From contig NW_027191466.1 in the NCBI RefSeq assembly GCF_011745625.1, forward strand, positions 186,001-250,000: a stretch of 64,000 nt of DNA. Reading direction: 5' to 3'. A program made the translations under genes and the position numbers. A model generated the notes under the pieces. The model was given only the letters and a program-made list of their open reading frames with translations, was not told the origin of the DNA and did not search any database. Below, one piece after another: positions 51,867 to 60,180 of the stretch. The stretch comes from Cladosporium halotolerans (Eukaryota). How positions within the stretch are numbered: position 1 is the stretch's first letter; each line of letters begins with the position of its first letter.

Positions 51867-53447
51867 TCATCGCCAACCCTGGCTCGAACTGCGATGGTCC
51901 TCATTGCTCATACTCTCAAAGCTCAAATCCCATTCGTCGACCTCCGCGAACTTCCGCCGCGCCTCCTCCAGCTCCTTGCTGTGCGCCACCTCGTGCATTG
52001 TGAGGCTTGTGTCCCCTTCCTCTTCCTCCAAGCCGGACTCCTCGCCTGCATTCTCCTTGTCGGACGCTGCTGCGCGGCCGTAGGTCCTAGTGGCTTTGCC
52101 TTTGTTTTTCGTCGACGGAGCAGGAGCGGCGGATTTGCGAGTCTGCTTGGGCTTTGTCTTCGCTGGAGCGGCGGTCTTCTTCCTGCCTTTGGTTTGCGCA
52201 GGGGCTCGGGTCTGCCGTCTGGTCCTGCCGCCCAGCTCGTCTTCGTCCTCGTCCAGATGTGTAGTGTCGAACGCTATGCCGTCGTCGTCTTCGTCCGAGG
52301 GTATGTCGTATTCTGTCCGGCCGTAGCTGGGCTGCGTTCTTCGTGTGCGTCTAGGCAGGAGAGCGCGTAGTGTTGCCGTTGACATGTTGACTTGCTTCTT
52401 GCTACCTCTACTTCTCGTCTTTGCTGGTTCACGTGGCGGTGGCGAGACTTGCGTGAGAGGATCTGCGTAGATGTCCGTGCGCTGTGTCTCCGGTATTGGT
52501 GAGGCGAGTGGGCTACTGCTGGCTGGTTCGGCCATGGTAGCGTTGGGCGCGTCGAAGTCGCTTTCTTGCTCCTCGTCATGGACTGTTTTTCGACGCTCCT
52601 GCTCCTCCGTGGATGGCACTGCCAAGTCTGCCTGTTCGGCTCCAGCGGGTTTCTCAGCAGACGAAGGTTCTGTAGGCGGTGTTGACTGTGGCGAGGAATT
52701 GACGACCTGTACGTCTGAGGTGATGGGGTTGGGCACAGGGCTCTCCTCGCGGTCTGATGAGGCGTGCTCTTCCACTTCGCCTTCAGCGTCGACTTGAGGT
52801 AGTGACTCCTCTTCCGCAGGCGGTACAGCAGACTTCCGGTGCCTTTTCTTCAACGCGTCCAAAGCCGAGTGCGAAACATCCACATCGTCTGATTTTCTCT
52901 TCTTCCTCAACGCACCCAAAGCCGAACCCGGAGCCTCCATCTCATCCGACTTGCGCTTACTCCTCCTCCTCGTCGCCTGCACAGGCACAGGGCTCTCTGC
53001 CGCCTTAGACACCACACTCTTCGCAGCGGACGCGACACTCTTCGCAGCAGAACCCACGTTCCTCCTCCCCTTCGAAACCAAAACCGGCGTGCCCTCCGCC
53101 TCCGGCGCAAAATCCTCCTCATCCTCACTCGCGCTGCCCAGATCAAACACGCTCGTGCTCTCCACGCCATCGTCCTCCACCTGCGGCCTGGCGCTCAGCA
53201 TGCTCTGCTGCGCGATACTGGAGCGGCGGCGCTTGACCATCTCCAGCATGCTGCCCTGGCGCGGGCGGCGCTTGAAGTTCTTCAGAGCCAGCATGCTCGT
53301 CTCGACGGCCGGGCCGGGCGTGCCGGTCGTGTTGGTCTTCTCGCGCAGGGCGGGGCGTCGCGTCGTTGTTGCGGGCGCATCTTTGGTTGCTGAGGGCGGT
53401 GGCTTCGTCGCGGAGGGCGGCGCGCGGGCGCTGCGGAGGCGGGCCAT
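51867..53447 (-). CDS. Disordered nuclear protein with D-box, KEN box and Sororin-like C-terminal motif (candidate Sor1)
   Basis: RPALREKTN (RxxLxxxxN), NFKRRPRQGSML, STATLRALLPRR, RTYG, DKEN, ELEEARRKFAEVDEWDLSFE. Confidence 0.75.
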   Translation of the reverse strand: MARLRSARAPPSATKPPPSATKDAPATTTRRPALREKTNTTGTPGPAVETSMLALKNFKRRPRQGSMLEMVKRRRSSIAQQSMLSARPQVEDDGVESTSVFDLGSASEDEEDFAPEAEGTPVLVSKGRRNVGSAAKSVASAAKSVVSKAAESPVPVQATRRRSKRKSDEMEAPGSALGALRKKRKSDDVDVSHSALDALKKRHRKSAVPPAEEESLPQVDAEGEVEEHASSDREESPVPNPITSDVQVVNSSPQSTPPTEPSSAEKPAGAEQADLAVPSTEEQERRKTVHDEEQESDFDAPNATMAEPASSSPLASPIPETQRTDIYADPLTQVSPPPREPAKTRSRGSKKQVNMSTATLRALLPRRTRRTQPSYGRTEYDIPSDEDDDGIAFDTTHLDEDEDELGGRTRRQTRAPAQTKGRKKTAAPAKTKPKQTRKSAAPAPSTKNKGKATRTYGRAAASDKENAGEESGLEEEEGDTSLTMHEVAHSKELEEARRKFAEVDEWDLSFESMSNEDHRSSSQGWR

Positions 53448-53810
53448 TGTTGGCGCGGCCGGTTGGGTAGGGATGTATTCGGATTGTTTTTCGAGGGCCA
53501 GAGGGTTTATGGTTTCCAGGGTGGTGGTGGGAAGAGAGGTGGGTGATGACGTTCTGGACGAGACGCGTGATGGCTTGCTGGAACGCGACTTTCGCACAAC
53601 AGCCCACCAGCGGGCTTTGCTGGGTGGCAGAAGTCGTGGTCTGAGCTGGATTGCGCTCCAATGAGAGGGCTGCTCGTAGGAGGATGGGATTGGCCGTACA
53701 ATGCTCTTCTTTTGTTATTTATGTTGATGCTAACAATGCTACTTGAACACGTCATCAAGCATATTGTGATTACATACTCCGTAGATCAAGTAAAGGCCGC
53801 TATGAGCACC

Positions 53811-55932
53811 TTAGAACGGACCAACATTCGCGTTGCCCTCCAGCAGCTTCTCGATCATGCTGCGGCAAATAGGGTGGTAGAAATCCTTGTTCTTCTCGAA
53901 CGTCTCGCGGGCCAACGGGACGTCGACCTTCAACAGCTCCTTGTACAAAGGCCTGACGAACTTCATCCTGCCAACTCTTCCAGCGAGCGCCGCAGCGTCC
54001 TTGTAGAACTTCTCCGCCTTAGCCTTGAGAGCAATGACATAGAATCTGCTGACAAGCTCGACGTTCTTCGACGAGGCGTACGCGTACTCCTTGCCCATAG
54101 TCTCGACAAGAGCCGGAGACAGCGGGGACGGGAAGCCCTGAACGGCCTCAAGGAAGACGTAGCTCTGCTGAGAGGTGAACTTGGAGATGTCGTCGGCGCT
54201 CGGCTTGAAGTCTGATTTGCCCTCGCTGAGAGCCTTCCATTGATCCGCAAGTGCGAGGCAGGCGTCGGCAAGAGTGGTGTCGAACGCTGGCTTGGGTGGG
54301 AAGCCGGGCTTGTAGTACCAAGCGTCCCAATCGAGGTCATTGAGCTTCTTGCTGGCATCAGCATCTGACGCGAAGAAGTCAAGCAGCGTGGCCTTGAACT
54401 CGTAGGAGTCGACGGAGCGCTCCTTGAAAGTGGTGAAGTAGTGCGGAATGAACTTGTCCCACTGCTCAATGCCAATCAGCTTCTCGAGATGGTACAGAAA
54501 CACGAAGCCCTTCTCGTAGGGAACGCTGGAGAAGGCGTCATCCGGATCCTTGCCCTTCAGGTCAGGAATCATCTTGGTGAACTCATGGTCCTCGCCGAAC
54601 TGAGCAATGCTGTCGGACAAGGCCTTCCAGCCGATAAGGGCGCTGAAGTCGCGGATCTTGTCATCGTTGTGCACGGCGCCTTGGATGCGGCGCTCAAGGT
54701 ATACAGTCCAGCCCTCGTTGAGCCAGAAGTGCTCCCAGCTAGCACAGCTGACGAGGTTTCCGGACCTGCAGAGAGCGTCAGTTGATGTTGCCGAGCAGAT
54801 GTTGTACTTTCTATACATACCAGGAGTGAGCAAGTTCGTGAGCGACCACATCCACGTTAGCACGGTCGCCGCTGATCAGGGTGGGGGTTGCAAAAGTAAA
54901 GACTGGGTTCTCCATGCCGCCTGAACATCTATTAGCTCGTGGACCTTGAACAGCGGAATGCTCGCTTTTGCGCAAAGTCACGTTGTGGCAAGCGTTTTAG
55001 GACTTGAAACATACTACGAAGATGTCAGCATATATTTCTCATGCAGGCAGTGGCTCTCAAACTCACCCATAGGGGAAAGACGGCGGGAGAACAAGAACAT
55101 TGTACTGAGTCCAAGCATAGGGGTAGACAATCTTCTCCGCAGTCTTGATGTAATCCTCAGTGTCCGCCTCGAACTCCCACTGACAATCAGTGAGCTCCTC
55201 AGGGCCTGTCCACACAGTAGAGCGAGGACCGATCGACGCGCAAGCGAGGTCACCGCTGGCAACAGCGAACAGATACGAGGGCATGGGGACGCTCTGGTGG
55301 AATGTGTAGAGCAGGGTGCCGTCTTTGCCATCCTTGCCGACCTCGAAGTCCTTAGCTCCAGTGGGCAGTCCAGATGCAACGACCGGCAGGGGCGAGCGCA
55401 GGTTGAAGGTGTAAGTCGACTTCACGTCCGGAGTGTCCTGGCATGGCAGCAGCGATCTGGCGTGGATAGCCTGGCATTGCGAGAACATGTACGGTTGCTT
55501 CTTGTTGCTGGTCTGGGCCGGGGTCATCCATTGGAGAGCGGTGCAGTCCTTGGTGGTGGAGACTTCGATGTCGACGGTGACCTCGGAAGCAGAAGCGACG
55601 TACTCGTCGGCGAGACCGATGGTCAAAGGAGTACCGTATGGCTCGGTGCGCTTAGCCGCAAGCTCCCAATCGACCTTCTTTCCGGCCACAGTGACTGCAG
55701 AGACGTCCAGGAAGCTGGTGTCGAGAACGATCTTGCGTTCATCAGCGAGTTTCTTCAGGGTCAAGCTGACACTGCCGTGAAGACGCTTTCCTTCGAAGTC
55801 GATCGCATAGTTGGCGGTCGTGTGCTGCGTTCTCCAGGCATTGTAGTTGGCCAGAGTGTTCGGGTCTCTCGGTGCGTGAATGCTAGCAGCAGCCTTCTCG
55901 GCAGCAGCGTCAGAGATTGGCCGCATGACCAT
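53811..55932 (-). CDS. LTA4H: Leukotriene A4 hydrolase / M1 leucyl aminopeptidase; exons 55932-55068, 54920-54821, 54765-53811 (first intervening sequence is a stwintron); possible upstream start 56052
   Basis: [30 protein letters not shown] (after twin-intron removal), [28 protein letters not shown]. Confidence 0.95.
54921..55067 (-). other. Spliceosomal twin intron (stwintron), [D1,2] or [A2,3] type
   Basis: Minus strand reads G-GTGAGT..GCTGAC..TAG-TATGT..GCTAAT..CAG-G, with two complete sets of splice signals sharing one G. Only two-step removal gives the correct frame. Confidence 0.88.
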
Positions 55933-56734
55933 TTTTGACTGCGAGTATGGCAGCTGAGATTGGCGTTGAAATCCGTGAGGCTTAAAAGCAAAGCACTCTC
56001 TCAAAGTAGATGTGACTTTGCCCAAGAGACTACCTGCGGCCTTGCTGCTCATCCGGCAAGGAAGTCCTCTCGTAGCAAAGTTTCTTTTCCTTGGACCCAA
56101 CGCAGATACCCGGCAATGACAAAGTGGATTGCGTGACTCTTTTTATTGTTGGTCAGTGTGGAACGTGATACCCGAGCTCCTTCCTATCTGGTCGACCTCG
56201 TGACACCGCGAACAAGCGCGATGCTGTGCCTCGGTCGGCAAAAGTCGTTGCAACGCTGTAAGTAGGGTTAGGGTTGGGGTGACCGCAACACATCGATTGT
56301 CGACGCGTTCCTGTTTTGTAGACGTTGCTGCATATCTTAAGATGATCTGGGACTTCCGTTGGTATTAGCTGATAATTTTCAAGGGCAATTTGGTGTTCTT
56401 GAGCCAAGTGCCGGCATGTATATGAGGTACTGTCATTCTGCTAGTCTATGACAGAGCAGCTTCACGACACAGACGAAATTCTCGACGCGCAACGGACAAC
56501 ACATCAAGTCTCTATATCTCATGCAAGAAAATTATAGGCCTTGAGAAAGACCCATCAGATCACGCTCTCAAGACACAACCATCGATCAACCATTTTGACA
56601 AGGACCAGAGAGACACAGGGAGCCAGAAAGCCCCCATAACCGACGGAGTGAACAGACCACAAAACCCAATCAATACACTACAAACCAAACCCCATCCCCA
56701 ACCCTCCCACCTCCCACCTCACCCACCAACCCCA

Positions 56735-58567
56735 TCACCCCCTCAAAACCCACCAAGCCAACCTAACCGGCCCCCTCAACGGCCAAAACACCACCCCCAA
56801 CACCCCCAACACCGCATCGCACACCCTCCAAACGAGCGTAACTGCCATCAAAACCGCAACGACCTGCCCGACCAGCGACATCAGCACCCTCGACGCCGCG
56901 AGCTTCTCTTCCGCCGAAGCGTCCGGCGACGCCAGCGTCGCGACCATCGCGGGCGTCGGGACGCGGATGTGCACGTGGGCGCTGAGGCGGGTGTGCGCGG
57001 CGCGGAGGCTGCTGAGGAGGAAGGTGAGCAGGGCGATCAGGTGTTGCAGGGGGGATTGGGGAGGTGGGTCTGGGGCTGTGAAGAGAGGGTGCGAGTTGGG
57101 GCTTTGATGTTGCAGGGAGGCGAGGCGTTGGCAGGCGCCGGGCTCGGTCGAGCGATCGCAGCCTAGAGAGCAGGAGCGCGACCCTGCTGCTGCTGCTGTT
57201 GCGAGAGCGTGGTCTGCGGCGCGCCGGAGTTTGGGCATGGGGAGGCTGGCGAGCTCGGGGTGCACGAGGTGCAGTTTCGGCAGCTGGCTGAGGTGCGTGA
57301 TGGGACCGTGGGCGTTCGCGTGTGGTCTCCGCACACCACCACCTCTTCCACCAGAGCCACTGGACCTCCTCGCCGGCGTCCTGGGAGAAGAATACGGCGC
57401 GAACAGCGCCGCGCCGCGCAGCATCTGCTCAGCCCCAGACGTCGCCGTCCCGTCCAAAACCTCCAGACTCGGCGCGCCGCGCCTGATGACCGTCCCCTCT
57501 CGTCTCTTAGGAAAATGCCCCTGAAGCGGCACCGGCCCCGGCACCGCAGCCCTCTTCCTGCCCCTCTCCTGCCCCGCCGCCGAAACCACCCTCCTCCCAC
57601 CACAGCCCCCAGTATCCGCTGGACTCGTCTTCCTCACCCCTCCCCCACCGCCCCTCACACACCGCCTATCCCAGCCCTCGCCGCTCGTCTTCCTCGCCTT
57701 GCTCCTGTAGTGCTCGAACGCGCGGATCTCCTCCGCGCTGCGGCCCGGATACGCGTACGGCTGCGGTTCCCGAGCCGAAGGCATGGGGAGCACGAAGCGG
57801 TCCTCGGCCGCGGGGCCCAGAGGCTTCCTTGCCAGCTGAGCGAGGGCGATCTCGTTCTCGTCCTGGGGAAAAACCGCGCCCACGAGATCAGCCGCGCCGG
57901 CGCTCGCGGTGGCGTCGCTCGCGCGAGGCGACGCCGCCGCAGCAGCAACAGCAACAGCGTCCTCGAGCGCCCAGCCCTGCGCGCCGGCGCGCCAGCGGGC
58001 GCTGATTTTGCGGGCGGAGTTGGCGCGGGTGAGAGCTGGTCTCGCGTGCTGTTCCTCTCCGGCGTCGGGGAGGATGGGCGATCGGTCGAACTGGACTCGT
58101 AGCTTGAGGGCTTCGGCGGGCGACTCGGGCGTCTGGGGCGTCGGGGAGGGCAAGCTGGGGCTGACGAGGCCGGTGCGGGGGTTCGCGGCGCGGGCGGTGA
58201 GGTAGTCGTCGGAGTCCTTCATGCGCATTTTGCGGCGGGTTGGGGTTGGAGTTTGGAGGGTTGGAGGGGGAGGGGGGAGCGCGGGTGTCGTCGTCGTCGT
58301 TGTGATGGTGAGCTGTTTCAGGAGGAGGCTGCGGGCGAGGGATTTGATTCGGAGGGTTCGCGAGGGGTGGTGATTGTTGTTGTTGTTGTTGCTGTTGGTC
58401 GGTTTGAGGCGCCACTTGGGCGGGCAGAGCTCTGGGACTGTTGTTGATTGGGGAGCGGTTGATTGATATTGCGGATTTGCGGTCGAAATGGGTGTTTTCT
58501 TAGGATCCTGTGATTGTGAGTTCTTCGGCGGTGCCTCCAATCTTGCTGATATTGCCATTGAAGCCAT
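56735..58567 (-). CDS. Hypothetical protein (610 aa) with DSDDYLTARAANPRTGLVSPS motif and C-terminal hydrophobic segments
   Basis: Long ORF with GC-rich codons, poly-N/T/P tracts, DRFVLPMPSAREPQPY and a hydrophobic C-terminus. Start uncertain. Confidence 0.7.
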   Translation of the reverse strand: MASMAISARLEAPPKNSQSQDPKKTPISTANPQYQSTAPQSTTVPELCPPKWRLKPTNSNNNNNNHHPSRTLRIKSLARSLLLKQLTITTTTTTPALPPPPPTLQTPTPTRRKMRMKDSDDYLTARAANPRTGLVSPSLPSPTPQTPESPAEALKLRVQFDRSPILPDAGEEQHARPALTRANSARKISARWRAGAQGWALEDAVAVAAAAASPRASDATASAGAADLVGAVFPQDENEIALAQLARKPLGPAAEDRFVLPMPSAREPQPYAYPGRSAEEIRAFEHYRSKARKTSGEGWDRRCVRGGGGGVRKTSPADTGGCGGRRVVSAAGQERGRKRAAVPGPVPLQGHFPKRREGTVIRRGAPSLEVLDGTATSGAEQMLRGAALFAPYSSPRTPARRSSGSGGRGGGVRRPHANAHGPITHLSQLPKLHLVHPELASLPMPKLRRAADHALATAAAAGSRSCSLGCDRSTEPGACQRLASLQHQSPNSHPLFTAPDPPPQSPLQHLIALLTFLLSSLRAAHTRLSAHVHIRVPTPAMVATLASPDASAEEKLAASRVLMSLVGQVVAVLMAVTLVWRVCDAVLGVLGVVFWPLRGPVRLAWWVLRG

Positions 58568-60180
58568 GTTTGCCCGTGGAATGCAGCTCGCTGGCCAGGA
58601 GACGTAGAGAGTGATGTTCAGCTGGGCGTGTCATTATTGCAACGAATACCTACCGTGACTATTTCTCAGAGCGTCTTATCTTCAATAAGAATGTGCCTTC
58701 TTTAACGAAACGATTTTTGAGTTGCTTGCGATCGCAATGGCCACCCAGATTCCAGCTCCATTGTGCCTACTCTTTGCAAACCGGTCACACGACAACGTTG
58801 GGACACTCGCAACATCGCCACTGCCGGAGTCGACTTGCCGAGAATTGGCACATTTCAAAGAGTCCCGCCACGCAGCATACAACACACCGGTCGTCTCGCA
58901 CAGCTCGCGGAATAATCACCAGAAAGTCGTCACGAGCAGCACCCGCAGTAGTGTGGCGGCATCATCGCGGAGGGAGAGGTCCTTTCGATTTGGGGGAGCG
59001 AGGGTCCCACGGAACTGCATGGAAAAGCGTCGCTTGGAGCAGACGACGGAACGACAGTCTTTCTTCGGCCTGGGCGCATTCAACGCTGCAAGGCCCTCCG
59101 GAGCGACCAAGAACGCACAAGCACAGCAATACACAGTAACACACAAGACGCACCCGGGGAGCGGCGACAATTGATAGCGGTGGCCGACGCCGCGAGGCGA
59201 TTAATGCCGCATACCATTTAATGGCGCATTCCGTCGCGGCGTCGCGTGTGCCGAGGGAGAGCACTTTAGGCGGACCGGGCGCGCGTGCGTCTAGCCTGGG
59301 AGCCTGGGTGGGGCCCAGACGGCGCGCCCACCTGCATGGCATGCATGCCGTGCCTGTACCTGACAGGGCAGGACGCCTTCTGCAGCTTCTAGCTCGCCCC
59401 ATCGGCACGACGGCGGCGGCGGCGAGCACGCGCGCGACGCGCGGAAGTGCTTCCTCGACCACGGGCTTTCGCGGTTTGGGTTCAGAGCGAAGAAGGGACC
59501 AGAGAACGGAGAGAAGAGTACTTCGGTACACGATGCGGTGTGGACGGCACGCGAGAGCCGATCGTTGAACGTCTTGGGCGCCTTCAGAGGGACCTCTCCA
59601 CCCACACACACCTCGGCACCGGCGGCTGAAGGCCAGGCGAGACGTCAGCAGAGCTTATCTCATTTTTTCGAAAGAAAATTACCAGCGCAGAGAGATCTGA
59701 GCGCCGCGGTAGCAACAGCGCGCGATCGCAGGAAGACGCATGTGGCGTTCCTGCCAGGAGCCGCGGCACGTCAGAGCCGTAAGGCGCATCTGGTCAGTGG
59801 TATCACTGCAGTGTCATGCCGACGAGGTCCGGCGTCGCACACCAAAGTGCAAGGGACTCGACTGCAACGCTGAGGTTGAGCGCGCTCCAGGGCGGGTAAT
59901 TCAGGACGCGGTCACTTGGCTGCTTACGGCCGGGATGGAGGCCTTCGAACGAACGTGCTTTTTCGACCATTTTCCGGTAGCGCCCTCGCAGAATAATGTC
60001 TGGAGGAATAGTGCCAGCCCTGGCTCTCGCTCGCCCCGACCGAGGCCCACTGAGCAGCCCATCTGCAGGTCAACACGGCAAGCCCACAAAGCGTGAAAGA
60101 CCAGCGGGCTCGTTCTCTGGAGACGCCCGCACGGTTGCAGGGCCCGTGTTGGGAGCCCCACGGGCTCCGCCGGGGGAAGT

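Follow-up and report, generated by a model that had tools for sequence, protein, structure and literature searches.

The window analysed here, a stretch of 64,000 nucleotides (nt) from Cladosporium halotolerans (contig NW_027191466.1, positions 186,001 to 250,000), carries on its minus strand a gene predicted to encode a leukotriene A4 (LTA4) hydrolase-type peptidase, and the coding sequence of this gene is interrupted in the codon for the first Gly of GGMEN. How this interruption is removed is the question that the locus raises. Excision between the distal splice sites (55066..54921, 146 nt) leads, on translation, to a frameshift and an early stop, whereas removal of 147 nt, in either of two registers, gives an in-frame peptide that includes SFPYGGMENP. 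We conclude, at a probability of about 85%, that 55067..54921 is a functional spliceosomal twin intron (stwintron) of the [D1,2]/[A2,3] type that is removed in two steps. A preliminary description, made from the letters of the window, had placed such an element here with nested signal sets on the minus strand, and had held that a 146-nt removal shifts the frame and that a 147-nt removal restores YGGMEN. When the sequence was re-read its coordinates and signals were all correct, and translation agreed with both statements about the frame, in both registers for the second.

Two introns that share one nucleotide

Exon 1 of the gene ends in ...CCC TAT GGG, with three G at 55068-55066. The sites of the intervening sequence are as follows.

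54921..55067 ([D1,2] register), equivalent to 54920..55066 ([A2,3] register), minus strand: whole intervening sequence; 147 nt gone from the mature messenger RNA (mRNA), frame restored
55014..55066, minus strand: 5' constituent intron, 53 nt; GTGAGT donor at 55066, GCTGAC at 55029-55024, 7 nt, TAG ending at 55014
54921..55014, minus strand: 3' constituent intron, 94 nt; GTATGT from 55014, GCTAAT at 54936-54931, 7 nt, CAG ending at 54921
55067, minus strand: G 5' of the upstream donor; opens the external donor when read in the [D1,2] register and is exonic in the [A2,3] register
54920, minus strand: G 3' of the distal acceptor; closes the external acceptor when read in the [A2,3] register and is exonic in the [D1,2] register

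Both constituent introns are complete U2-type introns. G55014 is common to them, as the end of TAG and the start of GTATGT, and a G stands on either flank of the whole. The TAG followed by TATGT at 55016-55009 is a fused HAG+URWGY hybrid.

Stwintrons as described in PMC5587772 and PMC9024468 have GURWGY donors, HAG acceptors, a HAG+URWGY hybrid, units no shorter than 42 nt and 4 nt or more between branch site and acceptor, together with a G upstream, a G downstream and a frameshift on use of the distal sites. That distal-site excision causes a frameshift is reported in PMC9024468, and according to PMC5587772 a G at the exonic position on each flank makes a [D1,2] stwintron an [A2,3] stwintron as well. 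The layout in the window has every structural feature of a [D1,2]/[A2,3] stwintron. In the [D1,2] form the internal intron reads GTGAGT...GCTGAC, 7 nt and TAG (53 nt), its excision leaves G55067 joined to TATGT as a rebuilt donor, and the external intron has a branch site of its own (GCTAAT), 7 nt and the CAG ending at 54921. The 146-nt removal runs into a stop and the 147-nt removal gives SFPYGGMENP. For the [A2,3] form, G54920 stands downstream and the units overlap at G55014. The 7 nt from each branch site to its acceptor is the modal distance given in PMC9024468.

Such a layout is seldom produced by chance. We shuffled the interior of the 146-nt sequence 20000 times, keeping its dinucleotide content, the distal donor and the last 20 nt, and a nested signal set (a branch site, HAG fused to TRWGY, and both units of at least 42 nt) was found in 103 of the shuffles. 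When the full [D1,2] motif was sought on both strands of the window (128000 nt in all), the single match was 55067..54921; the branch-site-plus-hybrid motif alone occurs twice in the same scan.

Two orders of removal would be open to this sequence. By the [D1,2] route the 53-nt unit (55066..55014) would leave first and G55067 would meet TATGT, after which the rebuilt GTATGT donor would pair with the CAG at 54921 and the 94-nt external intron would leave. By the [A2,3] route the 94-nt unit (55014..54921) would leave first and TA would meet G54920; the rebuilt TAG acceptor would then pair with the GTGAGT donor at 55066 and a 53-nt external intron would leave. Either route would remove 147 nt in total and yield an identical mRNA. 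We would guess, and no more than that, that the [D1,2] route predominates, since transcription reaches the 53-nt unit first and introns of that size are usual in the gene family; "alternatively spliced" would describe, at this locus, a structural possibility.

The mature junction and how it could arise

We compared positions 53700-56200 with four sequencing runs, one of DNA (X15) and three others (X16, X17 and X1), as assembled contigs only. No run was recorded as RNA in the run search; X16 and X17 hold 0.88-0.90 of the sampled words, as an intron-free transcript would, and come from the same organism as the run that gave a 100% DNA match. A 2137-nt contig of X16 and a 1576-nt contig of X17, both from one study, match the window with 0 differences and join 54919 to 55067, at depths of 126.6 and 139.2, respectively. 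Exactly 147 nt are skipped at this joint, with a positional ambiguity of 2 nt, and the depth over the intron is 0 in both runs. This is the mature junction (147 nt out, Tyr-Gly-Gly-Met-Glu-Asn) that the preliminary description had predicted. The contigs also skip a control intron of the same gene (54766..54820), for which a canonical GT..AG register was found ("cut +2"), and they stop near the gene ends, reaching 56048-56075 on the 5' side. Because the control intron is skipped and the contigs end near the ends of the gene, we take X16 and X17 to be complementary DNA (cDNA). The fourth run, X1, from a relative about 98% alike, has the same joint at a depth of 3.6.

Neither a 146-nt nor a 138-nt product was found among the contigs of the compared runs. 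The latter would come from a further option that the preliminary description did not contain, GT55066..AG54929, which is in frame and gives PYGCSGGMEN, with an AG only 2-3 nt past the branch site; it is ruled out by the RNA-derived contigs, which skip 147 nt.

At window position 54298, X17 has two short contigs that lack one letter in the C-rich sequence cccaccc, at a depth of 56 of 477. This variant is probably a sequencing or assembly bubble.

An ordinary explanation for the frame of this gene would be a plain 146-nt intron and an assembly error, with an extra G at 55066-55068 or at 54920. G runs are error-prone in some sequencing chemistries, and the preliminary description had named a reading of just two G at 55066-55068 as the sign of such an error. 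The contig of X15 (Logan assembly) reads GGG there. It is a single contig of 183934 nt that spans 53700-56200 at a word depth of 33; across these 2501 nt it shows neither a differing letter nor a gap, and because it is identical to the window, the GGG at 55068-55066 and G54920 stand and there is no assembly error at these positions. X15 is possibly the source of the window assembly, which makes this an assembly check and not a comparison with an independent strain, and a systematic error is formally possible. The RNA-derived contigs show 0 differences on either exon side. Moreover, introns of relatives at this site (described below) are 52-59 nt long and not about 146 nt, which indicates that the extra 94 nt are a discrete added unit with signals of its own. 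We regard the assembly error as extremely unlikely.

A second explanation accepts the loss of 147 nt and assigns it to one non-canonical splicing reaction (GT..GG or GG..AG), the internal TAG/GTATGT being a coincidence. The mature junction by itself cannot separate one step from two, and the intermediates are not among the contigs. However, the 147-nt cut can be written in three equivalent registers, with the ends GT..GG, GG..AG and GG..CA, and none of them is canonical; a canonical GT or AG lies one letter off each. We know of no efficient use of such intron ends by the U2 spliceosome. In addition, the complete nested signal set, found in just 103 of the 20000 shuffles, is placed exactly where the two-step path restores the frame, and the published motif definition is matched in every feature. 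Removal in one step is, in our judgement, very improbable. A loss of 147 nt from the mature mRNA can be explained by two nested canonical reactions and by no single one, and we infer from this that the stwintron is removed in two steps, by one or the other of the routes described above.

Several observations nevertheless weigh against two-step removal, beside the ambiguity of the mature junction and the possible common source of X15 and the assembly. The joint table of the compared runs has no contig with just a 53-nt or just a 94-nt skip; contigs drop rare forms, and the missing intermediates therefore neither support nor refute two steps. That X16 and X17 are cDNA is judged from their behaviour, the two belong to one study, and the sample record of X17 is that of X15. 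The joint in X1 shows only that the same exon junction occurs in the mRNA of that relative, and does not speak for a stwintron there.

The gene and the history of the intron site

The remaining parts of the gene, with a slash for the position of an intron, are as follows.

56052 (putative ATG)..55068, minus strand: exon 1, an open reading frame (ORF) with Peptidase_M1_N; a second in-frame ATG lies downstream of the putative start codon
54920..54821, minus strand: exon 2, GMENP...HELAHS and the TG of a Trp codon; exopeptidase motif and first part of the zinc site
54820..54766, minus strand: second intron, 55 nt, canonical GT..AG, at HSW/SGN; skipped in X16 and X17
54765..53811, minus strand: exon 3, an ORF through the stop codon, with Peptidase_M1 and Leuk-A4-hydro_C; covered by the cDNA-like contigs

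The exon translations match Peptidase_M1_N (E 7.3e-30), Peptidase_M1 (E 5.8e-24) and Leuk-A4-hydro_C (E 1.4e-37). LTA4 hydrolase-type M1 peptidases are defined by the motifs GXMEN and HEXXH-X18-E. In the translation of this gene GGMEN is present, and HELAH, 18 residues and E make up the zinc site HEXXH-X18-E. Exon 2 shares 81% identity with residues 290-321 of one homologue (P0003), and the best named relatives, fungal proteins from Extremus, Vermiconidia and Cercospora among other dothideomycete genera, are 74-76% identical and are called leukotriene A4 hydrolase or leucyl aminopeptidase yscIV by their sources. Judged by its translation, the gene is one for an LTA4-hydrolase-type (leucyl aminopeptidase yscIV subfamily) M1 peptidase of a dothideomycete fungus; the three domain matches and the named homologues uphold the LTA4 hydrolase identity that the preliminary description had given it. 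We found no public gene model of the locus, the best protein matches being 84% (longer class) and 88% (near class) identical.

Among the 120 homologues listed, 117 have an uninterrupted SFPYGGMEN. In the three exceptions, larger blocks are missing (P0045 and P0053) or the motif reads GGTEN (P0114); these were inspected at the protein level as possible signs of stwintrons elsewhere, and no conclusion was drawn. Many database entries of about 326-329 residues (P0121-P0124) are exon-1-only calls on metagenome contigs that stop at the intron: prokaryote-style gene calling splits the fungal gene at the intron site.

The gene is flanked by two long low-complexity ORFs on the minus strand (51867-53714 and 56735-58630, 615 and 631 residues), which are rich in Ser, Pro, Lys and Arg. 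Homologues of both, at 46-59% identity, adjoin the gene in relatives too, and gene order is therefore conserved.

The preliminary description had suggested an alignment of orthologous genes to date the gain. We scanned metagenome contigs with the exon-1 protein and obtained 15 loci, 12 of which reach the intron site (L009, L014 and L015 end earlier). At the same donor, 8 of the 12 have a plain phase-2 intron of 52-59 nt and 4 are intronless, in the groups listed below.

L001-L005 and L008 (exon-1 identity 85-86%): canonical intron of 52-53 nt, TAC GG/GTAAGT...AG/A GGY ATG
L007 (79%) and L013 (93% over the last 132 residues): canonical intron of 59 nt, TAC GG/GTRAGY...ACAG/C GGA ATG
L006 (81%) and L010-L012 (59-63%): intronless at the site

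The donor in these relatives (TAY GG/GT, phase 2) coincides with the GTGAGT of the window, and their introns are about the size of the 53-nt unit; nothing like the 94-nt unit is found in any of the 12 loci that reach the site. In L001-L008 both neighbour genes of the window flank the gene, and these loci are therefore orthologous. The proteins of exon 1 were also placed in a quick maximum-likelihood tree, with Botryosphaeria and Corynespora as the root, from 33 rows and 326 columns; L009, whose row is poor and has 4 stops, was kept. The window falls within a clade that has 100% support, as the sister (99%) of L001-L005 and L008; P0001 and L007 come next, and then L006, L013 and L009.

The 53-nt unit is probably the ancestral intron. 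The 94-nt unit was most likely gained recently, at the acceptor of that resident intron, because 8 of the 12 loci have a plain intron at the donor and 4 have none. An ancestor would have carried a plain phase-2 intron at this donor, and the lineage of the window would then have gained the 94-nt unit exactly at the acceptor. Two points tell against this history. The likeness in sequence between the 53-nt unit and the introns of relatives is weak (its best scores were matched by 26 and 46 of 1000 shuffles, uncorrected over 6 comparisons), and because it is weak, the age order of the two units rests on position, size and parsimony. The tree, moreover, is a quick one with 326 columns, and its rooting decides between gain and loss.

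The stwintron could instead be ancestral to the clade, with precise, reverse-transcriptase-mediated loss of the 94-nt internal intron in the relatives. If an [A2,3] internal intron were lost, what is left would be the phase-2 intron of the relatives, and such loss is documented for the DHA1 gene, of which 11 orthologues have canonical introns one nt apart (PMC5587772). Against it, the window is nested among carriers of plain introns (the sister group at 99%, then L007 and L013), and at least two or three separate precise losses would have to be assumed in place of one gain. The second intron of the gene also points to an intron-gaining lineage: it lies about 100 nt downstream and is missing at that position from 12 of 12 related loci, 10 of which read straight through; in the other two, L007 and L013, a different intron lies 17 nt farther downstream. 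On these comparisons the second intron (54766..54820) is specific to the lineage of the window. We consider an ancestral stwintron unlikely; this alternative concerns the history of the element only. In L005, and in no other of the relatives, the exon-3 match is split by 47 nt (2933-2981), which suggests another lineage-specific short intron in the gene family.

If the 94-nt unit was gained, it could have arrived in a single insertion in two registers, as GTATGT...CAG between the TA and the G of the old acceptor or as TATGT...CAGG after the old TAG; no other registers fit. Copies of the 94-, 53- and 147-nt units were sought (blastn-short, in the window and the 15 loci) and only chance matches of at most 15 nt were found. 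A repeat search of the 64-kb window found nothing intron-like, and the 55-nt intron has no likeness to the 94-nt or the 53-nt unit. Tandem duplication was rejected as an origin, the 94-nt unit having no direct-strand likeness to the 200 nt on either side. The folds of the units, the whole stwintron and the stwintron with its flanks are unremarkable (z -1.34, +1.36, +0.07 and -1.23), that of the 94-nt unit having -22.5 kcal/mol, with 21 of 200 shuffles folding at least as well. An inverted match that might have hidden the distal acceptor was dropped, as the minimum-energy fold does not use that helix.

Introner-like elements are defined by multiple near-identical copies and a stable fold. The 94-nt unit does not have the extra-stable fold (z -1.34), and no copy of it was found in the window and the 15 loci, which amount to less than one genome. 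It resembles such elements, for which recent intron gains in Dothideomycetes are reported (PMC4457414), in being a probable recent gain in Dothideomycetes and in being longer than the resident introns of 52-59 nt, and differs from them in fold.

A possible trace of its origin lies within the unit. In reverse complement, positions 54943-54960 (nt 55 to 72 of the unit) agree at 16 of 18 letters with the junction of acceptor and exon 2, of the ancestral type, in L013 (about 448-465). With a local target of 500 nt, 0 of 300 shuffles scored as high; this was one of 8 comparisons. The match may be a footprint of the unit's origin, or chance. A tentative proposal, which we think rather doubtful, is that the stwintron is seen near its birth: a ready-made 94-nt GTATGT...CAG intron would have been inserted exactly into the TA^G of a resident 53-nt intron, in a lineage that would have gained the 55-nt intron as well, and the 18-nt match would be the footprint of that insertion, left, for example, by repair synthesis copied off the opposite strand at a break.

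Relation to known stwintrons

Helminthosporium solani is a dothideomycete. Its alternative-oxidase gene contains the first alternative [D1,2]/[A2,3] case, as cited in PMC5587772, and the present stwintron has the same overlapping geometry. It lies in a different gene, and both routes were shown experimentally in H. solani.

The stwintron in the Trichoderma reesei gene for a DHA1 antiporter (dhaoS orthologue) has 154 nt (66 + 88) with an overlap of one G; both of its intermediates have been cloned, and the preference for one route depends on the condition (PMC5587772). The two elements are alike in layout, with two U2 introns that overlap by one G, a G on each flank and, predicted here, the same mRNA by both routes. 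They are similar in size (147 nt, 53 + 94, in the window), and automated annotation fails on both. The present case, in another gene and another fungal class, is described from sequence and contigs alone, in contrast to the cloned intermediates of DHA1. The DHA1 stwintron is also old and widespread, with 36 strictly [D1,2] and 28 alternative forms among 73 orthologues (PMC5587772), whereas the one described here is found in the lineage of the window only, among 13 sequences compared.

In Hypoxylaceae, 117 [D1,2] stwintrons are reported from Hypoxylon sp. CO27-5 (PMC9024468; see also PMC12403724). The window shares with them the grammar of motifs, the 7-nt distance from branch site to acceptor and the frameshift on use of the distal sites. 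Many of the Hypoxylaceae stwintrons, as described there, are sequence-similar "sister" copies that spread as whole stwintrons into continuous exon; in the window and the 15 loci no sister copy was found, and the 94-nt unit adjoins a resident intron. The stwintrons of lipS and bioDA emerged from a pre-existing standard intron (PMC5639578), and like them the present stwintron stands where other taxa have a standard intron, which implies a new internal intron in or at the resident one. Those two are ancient (class or order level); here the lineages compared are about 85% identical in protein, and the geometry is the alternative [D1,2]/[A2,3] one. The class, including its alternative form and its emergence from resident introns, is thus already known (PMC5587772, PMC5639578), and the published cases (PMC5587772, PMC9024468) agree with its placing, in the preliminary description, among known but rare fungal introns. 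No published report of a stwintron in an LTA4 hydrolase gene was found in the stwintron literature, including the supplements of PMC12403724 and PMC9024468, most subscription journals being outside this scope. What the element adds is a stwintron that is probably young and whose "before" state can be seen in orthologous loci.

Recursive splicing at ratchet points in animals is also stepwise, and its first reaction regenerates a 5' splice site. It differs from the splicing of stwintrons in that no splice-site element is interrupted by another intron, a distinction also drawn in PMC5587772.

The finding leaves the known workings of stwintrons unchanged and bears on annotation and on the history of introns. 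Programs limited to single GT..AG introns are forced into a frameshift or into three extra residues (PYGCSGGMEN) in the catalytic exopeptidase motif of a conserved enzyme, and a correct model of this gene requires a two-step intron. One-nucleotide intron shifts have been proposed to pass through alternative [D1,2]/[A2,3] stwintrons (PMC5587772). Evidence so far has run from stwintron to plain intron; here a plain phase-2 intron is found in orthologous loci with conserved neighbours and a stwintron in the window, so that the gain step is datable and open to study in close relatives. If the stwintron is indeed near its birth, the locus would show the forward half of the published pathway, from plain intron to alternative stwintron. 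Later loss of the 53-nt unit would shift the intron from phase 2 to phase 1. With a second lineage-specific intron nearby, this lineage is a candidate for the study of recent intron gain.

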